Assembly: GCA_018238545.1 (NCBI GenBank)
Contig: JABCTC010000004.1
Coordinates: 1 to 64,000, forward strand
DNA from: Candidatus Heimdallarchaeota archaeon
Lineage (GTDB): Archaea; Asgardarchaeota; Heimdallarchaeia; Heimdallarchaeales; Heimdallarchaeaceae
Length of the DNA: 64,000 bases
Direction: 5' to 3'
Part shown: in pieces, positions 24,786 to 40,049 of the stretch
Numbering within the stretch: the stretch's first letter is position 1
Layout of the letters: every line of letters begins with the position of its first letter
The notes under the pieces: model-generated
Told to the model about the DNA's origin: nothing
What the model saw: the letters and a program-made list of their open reading frames with translations, nothing else
Databases searched by the model: none
Translations under genes and position numbers: made by a program

Positions 24786-26288
24786 ATGCCAATTACTGTG
24801 CTTATAGCAAATCGAGGAGAAATAGCTATACGAATCATTCGATCTTGCCAAATTTTGAACATGAAAACTGTTGCAGTTTTTATAGACAGTGAATCAACAT
24901 CTCAACATGTTAAAATGGCAGATGAAGCATATTCTCTAGGTGATGGCACAGTACAAGAAACTTATTTAAATATTCAAAAAATCATAAAAATTGCTTTACA
25001 ATCTGGAGCAGATGCTATACATCCGGGTTACGGTTTTCTAAGTGAGAGTTCAGAATTTGCTAAAAACATTGAGAAAAGTGGGTTGATTTTCATTGGTCCT
25101 TCTTCCACAATCATAGAGAATCTAGGAGATAAGATAAAAGCTAAGCAATATGCGAAGGAAGTAGGAATTCCAACTATACCTGGTTCTGAAGGATATGTAG
25201 GTTCTCTTGAGGAAGCAGAAGAGGTAGTTTCTGAAATCGGATATCCTATTATTATAAAATCAGCTTTTGGTGGTGGGGGAAAAGGTATGGAGATTGTTAA
25301 TTCCCATGAAGCACTTGAAATAAGTTTGATGGGTTGTCAGACAATATCAGAACAGTTTTTCGGAAGAAAAGAAGTGTTCATTGAACAGTATATAGCTGCC
25401 CCAAGACATATCGAAATTCAGTTCATAGCTGATAACTATGGTAATACCATTCATTTAGGAGACAGAGAGTGTACAATTCAGAGAATGCATCAAAAAGTCA
25501 TAGAAGAAGCTCCTTCTTTCCTTTCAGTGGAACAAAGAGAAGAACTTGGAGAGAAAGTTTGCAAACTAGCAAAAAACATTTCTTATTCTAATGCAGGTAC
25601 TGCTGAATTTCTTTGGAAGCACGGAGATGTTCTTTTTAATGAAATAAATCCTAGGATTCAAGTTGAGCACCCTGTCACAGAAATGATTACAGGGATAGAT
25701 ATAGTAACTCAGCAATTGAGAATTGCTACAGGTGAAAAATTAGCTTATAAACAAGAAGACATAGAATTCCGAGGTCATGCGATTGAATATCGGATTAATG
25801 CTGAAGATCCTTTACGCTCCTTTTATCCTCAGTCTGGAACTATAACAGATCTTCTAATTCCAGGAGGTAATTTTGTACGCTTTGATACGTATGTAACTCC
25901 ATCATCTAAAGTTTCTGACAGATTTGATTCTTTAATTGGTAAGCTTATTGTTTGGGGAGAGAACAGGAAAGAAACCATAGAGCGATCTCAGCTTGCACTT
26001 AAAGAATTATCCATAACAGGACTTATTACAAACATAGGTCTTCACCGTGCAATTTTAGAGACTGAGGAATTTAATTTAAGAGATCTTACAACAGATTTCC
26101 TTGAGAGAAATAACATCCAACTAATTTTATCTAATTATGAAAAAACCAAACTTGCTGCTGCTTATTCTGTTTATGAAAAGCATAAGAAGAAACTTGACTC
26201 TTTCCAAATGCACATCCAACATAAAAAAACAACAAACAATCGATGGAAACAACAGAGCAAACTCGAACAACAAAATAATTATCGTTAG
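24786..26288 (+). CDS. accC: biotin carboxylase subunit of acyl-CoA carboxylase
   Basis: ANRGEIA, HPGYGFLSE, GGGGKGM, RHIEIQ, RIQVEHPVTE, RINAED. Confidence 0.95.
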   Translation: MPITVLIANRGEIAIRIIRSCQILNMKTVAVFIDSESTSQHVKMADEAYSLGDGTVQETYLNIQKIIKIALQSGADAIHPGYGFLSESSEFAKNIEKSGLIFIGPSSTIIENLGDKIKAKQYAKEVGIPTIPGSEGYVGSLEEAEEVVSEIGYPIIIKSAFGGGGKGMEIVNSHEALEISLMGCQTISEQFFGRKEVFIEQYIAAPRHIEIQFIADNYGNTIHLGDRECTIQRMHQKVIEEAPSFLSVEQREELGEKVCKLAKNISYSNAGTAEFLWKHGDVLFNEINPRIQVEHPVTEMITGIDIVTQQLRIATGEKLAYKQEDIEFRGHAIEYRINAEDPLRSFYPQSGTITDLLIPGGNFVRFDTYVTPSSKVSDRFDSLIGKLIVWGENRKETIERSQLALKELSITGLITNIGLHRAILETEEFNLRDLTTDFLERNNIQLILSNYEKTKLAAAYSVYEKHKKKLDSFQMHIQHKKTTNNRWKQQSKLEQQNNYR

Positions 26289-26310
26289 TTAATACTTCTG
26301 AGGAATAATT

Positions 26311-26790
26311 ATGAAGAAGAAAGTTATGTATCGAGGGAGAGAATACATTGTAGAAGCTCTAAGTAATGGTAGAATATCCATCGATGGGGAGATTTATTCA
26401 ACGGAGGTTGTGCATGGTGTGAATAATGTTTACAAGGTTATAGTTGATAGACAACCATTTACAGTAGAAGTAAGAGATGGGGAATTTGTTATTGACGGAG
26501 AAGAGGCAAAAATTGAAGTAAAACCCCATATAAACATTGAAGTTGGAGATGAATTTTTAGAACAGGAAAAGAATAAGAAAATTACCGCACCAATTCCTGG
26601 AAAAATCGTTCAAATACTGGTTAAAGAGAATGATTCTGTGCTAATAAACCAAGAATTAATGATTTTAGAAGCAATGAAAATGAGAAATAGGATTTTCTCT
26701 CCAGTAGACGGAGTTGTTTCCAAAATTTATGTAACTGTAGACACAGCTGTTAAACAAGATCAGAATCTTGTTGATATTGAAGTAAAATAA
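26311..26790 (+). CDS. accB: biotin carboxyl carrier protein
   Basis: APIPG and EAMKM biotinylation motif. Confidence 0.93.
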   Translation: MKKKVMYRGREYIVEALSNGRISIDGEIYSTEVVHGVNNVYKVIVDRQPFTVEVRDGEFVIDGEEAKIEVKPHINIEVGDEFLEQEKNKKITAPIPGKIVQILVKENDSVLINQELMILEAMKMRNRIFSPVDGVVSKIYVTVDTAVKQDQNLVDIEVK

Positions 26791-26792
26791 TA

Positions 26793-37615: not shown

Positions 37616-37625
37616 TTTATCACCT

Positions 37626-39203
37626 TCAAACTGGAGGGATTCCATGTTTTCTTTTTGGAGTCTGTTCTCTCTTGTTATGTAGCAAGCTTAAAGCGTTTAC
37701 AATCTCCTTCCTTGTTTCTTCTGGCAAGATCACTCTATCAATAAAACCTAATTCTGCAGCTTGGTATGGATTAGCAAATTCTTTCTTGAAATCTTTGGAA
37801 AGTTTCTGTAATTCTTCATCTGAATTTTCAGTTTCTTTAAGTTTTGAACGATAGATGATTTTACATGCGCTTTCTGCACCCATCACAGCTATTTCAGCTG
37901 TTGGCCAAGCTAAATTGATATCTGTCCCTAAATGCTTGGAACTCATAACGATATAAGCTCCACCATAAGCTTTTCTCACGATAACTGATACTTTGGGAAC
38001 TGTTGCTTCAGAATAAGCAAATAACAATTTAGCTCCATGTCTGATAATTCCTTCATGTTCTTGTTTAATTCCAGGAAGGAAGCCAGGAACGTCAACAAAA
38101 GTAAGGAGGGGAATGTTGAAGGAATCACAGAACCTAATGAATCTTGAAGCTTTATCTGATGCATTGAAATCAAGTGCCCCACCTAAAAATAATGGTTGGT
38201 TTGCGATAATTCCAGTTGTGCTGCCATTGAATCTAGCAAAACCTACAATGATATTCTTTGACCATTCTGCGAATAACTCAAAAAAGCTATCAGAATCAAC
38301 AACTTTCTCAATAATTGCTTTCATGTCATAGGGTTCATTTTCTTCCTCAGGAATGTAACTGGATAAATTAACCACCTCGAATTCATTCAGATCAACATTG
38401 ATTGTAGGTGGATCATCGAGATTGTTAGCAGGTAAATATGAAAGAAGTTTCTTGGTTAACTCCAATGTAGCTTCTTCATTATCTCCCGCTAGATGGCACA
38501 CACCTGTTTTACGGCTATGAACTTCACTTCCCCCTAACTCATAAAATGAAACTTCCTCGCCTGTTACATCTTTAACTACGTCTGGTCCAGTAACAAACAT
38601 GAAAGAGTTGGTTTTGTTCATAATAATGAAATCTGTTAAAGCTGGAGAATAAACTGCCCCCCCAGCACAAGGTCCTAAAATCACTGAAATTTGGGGAATA
38701 ACTCCAGAAGCTTGAGTGTTACGATAAAAAATATCTCCATACCCAGCTAAGGAATCCACGCCTTCTTGAATTCTTGCACCACCAGAATCCAATAAACCGA
38801 CGATAGGATTTCCAGTCTTAATGGCAAGATCCATAATTTTGCTAATCTTATTAGCTTGAGCTTTACCTAAACTGCCTCCAAAAACAGTAAAATCTTGGCT
38901 GTACAAATATATAGGACGACCATCGACTGTGGCATAGCCTGAAACAACACCGTCACCTAATGGCTTTGTTTTGGACATACCGAACTTAGTATTTTGATGA
39001 GTAACGAAAGAATCAATTTCAACGAAAGAACCTTCATCGACTAGTAATTCTATTCTTTCTCTAGCGGTTAACTTACCTTTCTGATGTTGATTCTTAACTC
39101 GTTTTTGTCCTCCACCCTCATGACTTTTTTCGCGTAGTTCGTTGAGTTTAGAAAACTTCTTTTCATTACTTTGGTAATTAATATTCTTAGGTTTCTGATA
39201 CAT
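37626..39203 (-). CDS. acyl-CoA carboxylase carboxyltransferase subunit (PccB/AccD-type)
   Basis: GKLTARER, DFTVFGGS, GGARIQEG, VDVPGF, KAYGGA, KHGIPP. Confidence 0.95.
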   Translation of the reverse strand: MYQKPKNINYQSNEKKFSKLNELREKSHEGGGQKRVKNQHQKGKLTARERIELLVDEGSFVEIDSFVTHQNTKFGMSKTKPLGDGVVSGYATVDGRPIYLYSQDFTVFGGSLGKAQANKISKIMDLAIKTGNPIVGLLDSGGARIQEGVDSLAGYGDIFYRNTQASGVIPQISVILGPCAGGAVYSPALTDFIIMNKTNSFMFVTGPDVVKDVTGEEVSFYELGGSEVHSRKTGVCHLAGDNEEATLELTKKLLSYLPANNLDDPPTINVDLNEFEVVNLSSYIPEEENEPYDMKAIIEKVVDSDSFFELFAEWSKNIIVGFARFNGSTTGIIANQPLFLGGALDFNASDKASRFIRFCDSFNIPLLTFVDVPGFLPGIKQEHEGIIRHGAKLLFAYSEATVPKVSVIVRKAYGGAYIVMSSKHLGTDINLAWPTAEIAVMGAESACKIIYRSKLKETENSDEELQKLSKDFKKEFANPYQAAELGFIDRVILPEETRKEIVNALSLLHNKREQTPKRKHGIPPV

Positions 39204-39299
39204 TAAAGTTCATTGTATTCACTCAAATAAAAGAAGCATCTTCTTTCATGAGAATATAAGGAAGGAAGTTTTTTAAAATACCTCCAATTTGCGGGTCTA

Positions 39300-40049
39300 A
39301 TGGTATTCAAAACTCTCATTAAAAACATCATCCATTTTCCAGCTGTTAACTCAACAATGGACGAAGCCTTGAGTTTTGTTAAAGAAGGTTTGAAGGACTC
39401 TTTTCTAGTAGTTGCTGATGAACAAAAAATTGGTAAAGGTAGAGGGAAAAATAATTGGTCTTCTCCAAAAGGTGGGTTCTATGGAACTTATGCTTTGCCT
39501 TTAGAAAAACAGGTAACAGAAAAACAGATTCTTTTCATGCATTATGCAGCTGCTATAGCAGTACAACAAGTTTTAGAAAAAGAAACAAGATTGGAGATTA
39601 AAACCAAATGGCCAAATGACATCTATTTTCGCAATAAAAAACTAGGGGGGATCATTATTGAATATCTTTCAAGAGACAAACTTTTTCTGTTGATAGGAAT
39701 CGGTGTGAACTTATTTTCTAATATCGATGATATAGCAGAAGAATATAGAAATAAATCTATTACTCTTCAATTTGAAGACAAACAAGACCTTGCTATGGAT
39801 AAATTTACCTCAAAACTATCTGATACTATGCTCAAATTTGCTGAAGAAATATTTGAAAACAGCTTTTCCAACATTATTAGTTTATTTAACAGTAGATTGA
39901 ATTCTTTTCAGAAGGAACTCAAATTAAAAAATGGAGATCAATATTTCTGTAAAGGGATTAATGATACAGGAAAACTTCTTCTAGAAAATGAATCTGACAA
40001 CTTACAATTAACGATAGAAGATAGTAAAATGATATTAGAAATGAACTAA
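39300..40049 (+). CDS. birA: biotin--protein ligase (no HTH domain)
   Basis: STMD, QKIGKGRG..W.SP.GG, KWPND, KLGGI, GIGVN. Confidence 0.93.
   Translation: MVFKTLIKNIIHFPAVNSTMDEALSFVKEGLKDSFLVVADEQKIGKGRGKNNWSSPKGGFYGTYALPLEKQVTEKQILFMHYAAAIAVQQVLEKETRLEIKTKWPNDIYFRNKKLGGIIIEYLSRDKLFLLIGIGVNLFSNIDDIAEEYRNKSITLQFEDKQDLAMDKFTSKLSDTMLKFAEEIFENSFSNIISLFNSRLNSFQKELKLKNGDQYFCKGINDTGKLLLENESDNLQLTIEDSKMILEMN

Follow-up and report, generated by a model that had tools for sequence, protein, structure and literature searches.

Positions 24786 to 40049 of the window (the whole 64,000-nucleotide stretch analysed, positions 1 to 64,000 of contig JABCTC010000004.1, assembly GCA_018238545.1, Candidatus Heimdallarchaeota archaeon) harbor a compact gene cluster that is probably the cell's de novo fatty acid synthase (FAS), feeding membrane glycerolipids via an alpha/beta hydrolase, Fak and PlsY. 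Six open reading frames (ORFs) are named by Pfam and NCBIfam. An AccC-type biotin carboxylase (BC, 24786..26288, plus strand, 500 aa) and a biotin carboxyl carrier protein (BCCP, 26311..26790, plus strand, 159 aa) with an MKM biotin motif converge on the alpha/beta hydrolase (26793..27557, minus strand), leaving a stop-side gap of 2 bp (26791-26792). The iterative type I synthase (27554..37645, minus strand) and a PccB/AccB-type carboxyltransferase (CT, 37626..39203, minus strand, 525 aa) lie beyond the hydrolase, and the gene for the biotin-protein ligase BirA (39300..40049, plus strand, 249 aa, without repressor domain) diverges from the CT gene, beginning 96 bp away from its start. This layout, re-read from the coordinates, agrees with a preliminary description made from the sequence alone. 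BC, BCCP and CT are each present as the sole copy in the genome, and its only ketosynthase, carboxylase, BirA and phosphopantetheinyl transferase matches are those in the cluster.

The synthase domains, all on the minus strand, are ordered pseudo-ER, enoyl reductase (ER), ketosynthase 1 (KS1), acyltransferase (AT), ketosynthase 2 (KS2), two acyl carrier proteins (ACPs), ketoreductase (KR), dehydratase (DH) and phosphopantetheinyl transferase (PPTase). KS1 (34088..35488) carries Cys929-His1063-His1102 and KS2 (31370..32764) an intact Cys1833-His1981-His2021; both triads are kept across 118-119 homologs. KS2 has the FabF fold in its predicted structure, and its residues rule out a role as chain-length factor (CLF). 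Between the two lies the AT (33056..33994, Ser1317/Arg1342). ACP1 (30980..31204) and ACP2 (30692..30919) are followed by a PfaA-like KR (29246..30013, Tyr2744/Asn2748), a double-hotdog DH of polyketide synthase (PKS) type (28301..29143) with His2871 and Glu3038, where PKS dehydratases have Asp instead of Glu, and an Sfp-type PPTase (27557..28243, Asp3257/Glu3259/Trp3292/Glu3296), the only PPTase-like match in the genome. The KR Tyr/Asn, DH His/Glu and PPTase Asp/Glu/Trp/Glu residues are conserved among homologs, and the catalytic residues of the synthase vary little or not at all across some 100-119 homologs. KS, AT, KR, DH, ER and ACP with their catalytic residues stand in one module, the set of a fully reducing iterative type I enzyme. 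The ACP-dependent reducing pathway of the preliminary description is complete at the gene level, KS, AT, ACP, KR, DH, FabK-type ER and PPTase all having been detected with catalytic residues present.

FabK matches cover both residues 16-246 and 332-627 of the synthase, corresponding to two successive TIM barrels. The second, the FabK-type FMN-dependent ER (35576..36652), carries His480, kept in 81/81 homologs. The first, the FabK-like pseudo-ER (36686..37600), has Lys153 in place of the catalytic His, a position that varies freely among homologs. A structure model of residues 1-690 is confident (predicted local distance difference test 92.6, predicted TM-score 0.94), and FabK structures match the ER region best, ahead of PfaD and yeast FAS (yeast FAS at rank 49). 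The His-less barrel probably serves as a built-in pseudo-dimer partner of the ER.

The carriers depart from the canonical form; their threonine, like the second Cys-His-His KS and the His-less N-terminal pseudo-ER, had gone unnoticed in the preliminary description. The serine of the ACP DS motif expected in a fully reducing FAS or PKS is replaced by Thr2184 in ACP1 (codon 31094-31096) and Thr2279 in ACP2 (codon 30809-30811); both ACPs read G-x-D-T, and PigH and AcpM show D-S at the aligned site. Across 247 homologous proteins, Thr occupies the phosphopantetheine site in 729 of 779 ACP domains and Ser in 32, the remainder being mostly degenerate end copies. Each of the 247 has at least one ACP with Thr or Ser, six of them having Ser only, and PfaA- and HglE-like control proteins have Ser ACPs. 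This conservation makes it very probable that the phosphopantetheine arm is attached to threonine. An 80-aa stand-alone ACP-like protein (G000:C42:20723-20963; L140:1724-1963, minus strand) scores above the PF00550 cut-off and has Lys at the phosphopantetheine position; it is the sole stand-alone ACP-like ORF in the genome, and a separate Ser-ACP as the real substrate of the PPTase was rejected on this ground. The cultured actinomycete Nonomuraea gerenzanensis (L124:11902-25120) also encodes a Thr-ACP synthase (KS-AT-KS-ACP-KR-DH); an acyl-CoA dehydrogenase gene stands before it, and after it comes the gene for a carboxylase in one chain of about 1,800 aa (BC-BCCP-ACC_central-CT).

All parts of a biotin-dependent carboxylase, probably one for acetyl-CoA, are present at the locus (BC, BCCP with MKM, CT and BirA). 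The AT shows GHSLG and SxAFHS motifs, the latter being the malonyl-type AT motif and present in all 109 matches. The CT has Ile at the PccB-422 position, as do all 11 carboxyltransferases compared (11/11), a residue which we take to shift PccB-type enzymes towards acetyl-CoA. These motifs indicate that the extender is most likely malonyl-CoA; of the two extenders originally proposed, methylmalonyl-CoA is unlikely. Judged from its domains, the synthase can with considerable confidence be expected to make reduced long acyl chains from malonyl-CoA. The hydrolase, with a GESFGG nucleophile and Asp/His triad motifs (start possibly at the ATG at 27548), is a candidate chain-release thioesterase. From its first ATG the synthase would be 3,363 aa; the true start is probably the second ATG at 37615, because a GGTGA site precedes it and the resulting 3,353 aa fit the 3,352-aa closest homologs.

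The cluster belongs to its host. Its GC content (0.33-0.37) and third-position GC (0.22-0.27) agree with the genome (0.34 and a median of 0.25), and its tetranucleotide distance falls at the 85th percentile of 191 genome windows. The preliminary description had matched both AT-richness and GGTGA sites to the flanking genes; the composition does match, but GGTGA occurs before only one of the six cluster genes, at the second synthase ATG. The host genome (3.63 Mb, 92% complete) has an archaeal 16S match, an archaeal Nre is encoded on the same contig, and the closest synthase homologs carry the names Heimdallarchaeaceae or Heimdallarchaeota, so that the proposed Asgard host stands.

A survey covered 399 Asgard genomes, 82 of Heimdallarchaeia (families f1-f7) and 317 of other Asgards. 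The proteins of f5 cluster with Ca. Hodarchaeum mangrovi; f6 is probably Hodarchaeales too, and f7 is taken to be Gerdarchaeales. The synthase occurs in 66/399 genomes. It is present as a single copy in 52/58 non-Hodarchaeales Heimdallarchaeia (f1-f4, f7), the six genomes without it being 68-87% complete, and was not found in f5/f6, the probable Hodarchaeales (0/24); a KS search in Hodarchaeum gave a match in 1/22 genomes. Outside Heimdallarchaeia it appears in 14/317 genomes, these being 3/14 and 11/135 of two Loki families, and nowhere else. Most genomes of three Heimdall-group families carry it intact. The six genes remain clustered in genomes of f1, f7 and Loki, among them the closed genomes G054 and Ca. 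Harpocratesius repetitus, with nre, tldD and a phosphoesterase gene as recurring neighbors in relatives. Because the cluster recurs with the same flanking genes in many genomes, closed ones among them, a chimera is excluded; contamination is likewise rejected by composition, multi-genome presence and synteny.

The hydrolase is syntenic in 8/10 relatives examined and absent from two f3 loci. These f3 loci lack the ER domains as well, and a FabI gene directly follows the synthase gene, which argues that enoyl reduction is retained. Two further variants were seen: in G001 (L104:5138-8240) a second CT and BC pair is inserted in the cluster, perhaps with a second extender specificity, and in closed genome G053 (C1:485122-488518) the synthase seems to be split and its KS repeated, sister genome G054 being intact. 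A scan of genome contigs returned two Heimdall loci, the rest being bacterial, without the Thr-ACP motif and apparently FAS II clusters.

In a KS1+AT tree (a quick LG+G4 search on top hits, with biased sampling and no eukaryotic rows) all Asgard copies form one clade (SH-aLRT 100, 86 rows) with family-congruent subclades and bacterial relatives around it. This congruence bears out the long residence proposed earlier. The Loki copies branch with those of f1, a position suggesting that Loki received the gene by transfer, and Thermoplasmatota copies fall apart from the Asgard clade, among bacteria. Gain from bacteria early in Heimdallarchaeia is part of the best explanation.

The genome encodes three PlsY proteins, one above the TIGR00023 cut-off (157 vs 137 bits) and two below. 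FakA is split into two kinase-domain genes and one middle-domain gene, below the whole-protein cut-off, and there are 14 DegV/FakB loci, with DegV above cut-off. Glycerol-1-phosphate (G1P) dehydrogenase scores 401 bits (cut-off 413); CarS and a single prenyltransferase resembling digeranylgeranylglyceryl phosphate synthase (DGGGPS) are present. PlsX, PlsC and GpsA were not found in the genome, and a PlsX route was dropped for want of PlsX in the 5 genomes searched. Geranylgeranylglyceryl phosphate synthase (GGGPS, PF01884) was not found by profile search, tblastn or phmmer with two queries in this 92% complete genome, nor in closed G053 and G054. The same pattern extends across the survey. FakB is present in 68/82 Heimdallarchaeia vs 0/317 other Asgards, and canonical GGGPS in 1/82 vs 282/317. 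PlsY matches below 1e-28 occur in 57/58 non-Hodarchaeales Heimdallarchaeia, in up to 12 copies, and weak ones in 13/24 f5/f6 genomes. A plsY gene adjoins birA in closed G054, and fakA, degV and plsY lie in a row in G083. A single DGGGPS-like gene accompanies expanded PlsY and FakB in most f1 and f7 genomes (9-14 FakB copies in three f1 genomes; 4-12 PlsY copies per f7 genome).

A divergent PcrB/GGGPS-like protein (e.g., L098:951-1700 of G032, family f3), below the strict Pfam threshold, occurs in 10/12 f3 genomes and the f2 genome; none was found in the present genome, nor in f7 or in f1, apart from the canonical copy of G020. The closed Loki genome G133 (Ca. Harpocratesius repetitus; L116-L117, C1:3502450) carries the synthase cluster and a GpsA-type glycerol-3-phosphate dehydrogenase, with no GGGPS, DegV or PlsX, and possibly follows a different route to bacterial-type lipids.

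These genes suggest the following pathway. BirA would biotinylate BCCP, and BC, BCCP and CT would convert acetyl-CoA to malonyl-CoA. The C-terminal PPTase would arm the two ACPs, most likely on threonine, and the AT would load malonyl units. KS1 and KS2 would then elongate, probably one acting on starting or short chains and the other on long chains, while KR, DH and the FabK-type ER, the last in a dimer-like pair with the His-less barrel, would reduce the chain fully. The hydrolase would release the fatty acid, which FakB and FakA would turn into an acyl-phosphate for PlsY to esterify to glycerol phosphate; hydrolase, Fak and PlsY would in this way complete a route from synthase to lyso-lipid without PlsX. 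The acceptor is probably G1P, because G1P dehydrogenase is present and GpsA absent. Bacterial PlsY accepts G1P, and FakAB can provide its acyl-phosphate (PMC13400652). With no PlsC in the genus, the second chain may be added by a further PlsY paralog or by the one DGGGPS-like prenyltransferase; the latter would yield an acyl-ester/isoprenyl-ether hybrid, a product that we consider somewhat less likely than not. CarS would activate the lipid. That the synthase products end up in membrane lipids is, on this gene content, a likely outcome.

Several observations weigh against this reading. FakAB normally serves scavenged fatty acids. Genes for a DGGGPS-like protein, CarS and geranylgeranyl-reductase-family proteins are retained in the genome, and isoprenoid tails may therefore still be present. 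The f5/f6 genomes lack GGGPS (24/24) and the synthase, often also FakB and PlsY, and have 2-6 DGGGPS-like prenyltransferases. These UbiA paralogs (e.g., in G065, G069 and G072) are candidates for GGGPS replacement, relevant also to MK-D1, and one may replace GGGPS in Hodarchaeum. P. syntrophicum MK-D1 lacks GGGPS, yet phytane and biphytanes are reported from it (PMC11316595), and both GGGPS and the synthase are missing from two closed genomes presumed to be those of MK-D1 and Ca. L. ossiferum. Because MK-D1 and the probable Hodarchaeales lack GGGPS too, its loss alone proves nothing, and it was dropped as proof of fatty-acyl membranes; f1 and f7 are set apart by having one DGGGPS-like copy together with the PlsY and FakB expansions. 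Synthase-bearing Loki genomes are without FakB, and 11 of them retain GGGPS. The survey counts reflect few evolutionary events, related genomes not being independent. No measured product was found for any member of the synthase family, and one narrow literature search found no precedent for phosphopantetheine on threonine. The Hodarchaeales, usually placed nearest eukaryotes, are without the synthase, to which eukaryotic FAS does not appear closely related. Of the lipid-divide relevance claimed in the preliminary description, the link to membrane-lipid genes holds through the Fak, PlsY and GGGPS pattern; the tie to the lineage nearest eukaryotes does not, Hodarchaeum and its sister family being without the synthase.

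Some of these points would fit a specialized lipid instead: chains that are branched or of great length, or two finished chains joined head to head by KS2 into a long ketone or an alpha-alkyl beta-hydroxy acid, used at the surface, in storage or in protein acylation, with isoprenoid membranes made via a UbiA paralog in place of GGGPS and Fak/PlsY kept for scavenged fatty acids. The two complete KS domains, the patchy presence in Loki genomes that retain GGGPS and the MK-D1 precedent of isoprenoid lipids without GGGPS favor this account, as do the PfaA-like KR, DH and ACP, Pfa-like synthases usually making secondary lipids (PMC3098273). However, the synthase is near-universal and single-copy across three families, FabI substitutes where the ER domains are missing, the synthase complements missing FAS II in Bradymonadales (see below), the conserved cluster has no tailoring, export or storage-lipid genes, and most f1 and f7 genomes have but a single DGGGPS-like gene. 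We regard a specialized lipid as rather unlikely. An iterative PKS releasing a secondary metabolite that acts outside the cell is considerably less probable. Bacterial PKS domains are the best solved-structure matches of KS1, and a Heimdallarchaeota PKS has been read in this way before (PMC7472256), but the full reductive set, the dedicated and sole carboxylase, vertical retention and the absence of tailoring or transport genes from the conserved cluster speak against it. That a bacterial fragment was binned with archaeal DNA, or that the synthase is dead with its Ser-less ACPs, is hardly credible. Bacterial relatives do exist and the attachment site has changed from Ser to Thr; yet the same cluster and neighbors occur in many independent assemblies and closed genomes, synteny in closed G054 refuting contamination, the contig carries the archaeal Nre and its composition fits the genome. 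Moreover, 94% of the 779 ACPs have Thr at the site, Ser being the commonest replacement, and the catalytic sites are all conserved.

Compared with known systems, the synthase appears to work like an iterative FAS I built of PfaA-like parts, and most resembles the uncharacterized 'Type R' clusters of Koribacter, Solibacter, Elusimicrobium and Roseiflexus (Shulse and Allen, 2011, PMC3098273). These likewise have a single PfaA-like gene, ordered KS-AT-(second KS fold)-ACPn-KR, a PPTase alongside and, in one member, a carboxylase gene nearby; here the PPTase is fused at the synthase C-terminus. The Type R definition, KS-malonyl acyltransferase-CLF-ACP(3-6)-KR, matches in order, but the Heimdall enzyme has 2 ACPs and keeps an intact Cys-His-His in its third domain. 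The fused ER, DH and PPTase, the Thr ACPs and the archaeal host also differ, and the likeness follows the published description rather than an alignment. The product of Type R is given as unknown, and neither archaea nor threonine is mentioned (PMC3098273). PfaA-E polyunsaturated fatty acid (PUFA) synthases (TIGR02813) and HglE share a related KS1, AT, tandem ACPs, KR, C-terminal DH and FMN TIM-barrel ER. The TIGR02813 cut-off is not reached (873 vs 1010 bits); the FabA-type DH/isomerase pair and KS-CLF of Pfa are absent, there being one PKS-type DH, a complete KS2 and an ER nearer FabK than PfaD. PfaA/HglE-like proteins also fall outside the synthase family in the KS1+AT tree. Fungal and CMN-group FAS I are likewise single-chain, with an integral, self-priming PPTase and an FMN TIM-barrel ER, but differ from the Heimdall enzyme in domain order, its two KS, its tandem ACPs and its separate hydrolase. 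The synthase does not appear to be a close relative of eukaryotic FAS and offers no evidence for the ancestry of the latter: the 60 highest-ranking PDB hits for KS1, ordered by similarity only, include neither an animal or fungal FAS nor CMN-group FAS I.

Archaea are said to encode neither complete FAS II nor FAS I, with ACP absent from nearly all of them (bioRxiv 10.1101/2024.07.05.601840). The Sulfolobus complex described there also makes fatty acids de novo in an archaeon; in contrast to the Heimdall synthase it is CoA-bound and thiolase/DUF35-based, without ACP or PPTase. The downstream route shares a DAK2 kinase, several DegV/FakB paralogs and PlsY with the FakAB-PlsY route of Firmicutes. 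It differs in the split FakA, the lack of PlsX and, in the genus, of PlsC, and in G1P dehydrogenase and CarS instead of GpsA; unlike in Firmicutes, it is possibly fed by the cell's own synthase.

The same family occurs in Bradymonabacteria, from which FabB/F and FabI/L are published as absent and whose fatty acids are assumed to be taken from prey (PMC7460792). The synthase is single-copy in 29/41 Bradymonadales genomes (completeness not given), and FabF reaches its cut-off in 0/41. Near-cut-off FabF was found in three genomes, two of which lack the synthase. This bacterial pattern lends independent support to a role in fatty acid synthesis, against which stands a Pfa-like cluster in Lujinxingia, a possible alternative fatty-acid supply. 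We put forward, as a joint proposal to which we give slightly less than an even chance, that this family is an unrecognized primary FAS in bacteria from which fatty acid synthesis is said to be missing, and that Heimdallarchaeaceae and related families crossed the lipid divide independently, a single-chain FAS armed on threonine providing most membrane tails and PlsY replacing GGGPS as the first step toward a G1P acyl-ester membrane, diacyl or acyl/isoprenyl.

Elsewhere in the window, an opine-dehydrogenase-like gene is coupled just left of the cluster to a B12-binding/methylaspartate-mutase-E-like fusion protein (21937-24575, plus strand), a pair absent from the syntenic relatives examined. 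A TnpB-family RNA-guided endonuclease (8704-9963, plus strand) and a protein rich in Arg and Ser that has two treble-clef zinc fingers (PF23477; 45069-45821, plus strand) are also encoded.

A PUFA-like KS in a Heimdallarchaeota metagenome-assembled genome was mentioned earlier, without its architecture (PMC7472256). PlsY and PlsC in Asgards and mixed membranes have already been proposed (PMC6431249, PMC6737245, PMC9723677, PMC11052028), and for Heimdallarchaeia bilayers of archaeol were predicted in 2025 (PMC12042123). A literature search, with subscription journals mostly outside it, returned no paper on the synthase as a conserved Asgard trait, on Thr carriers or on the Fak/PlsY/GGGPS pattern. 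The question addressed is how the archaeal host of eukaryogenesis passed from isoprenoid ethers to fatty-acyl esters. PlsY and PlsC are known in Asgards, but the source of acyl chains had not been pinned down, and the cluster is a complete, expressible candidate source. Threonine-linked phosphopantetheine, if true, would be a carrier chemistry not seen before, open to test in the cultured Lujinxingia and Nonomuraea gerenzanensis, and the set of Fak, PlsY, G1P dehydrogenase and CarS points to a specific lipid for Heimdallarchaeum enrichments. Relatives of eukaryotes may, by their gene content, have fatty-acid-containing membranes; if true, this would show not that eukaryotes inherited the synthase, but that an Asgard membrane can switch.

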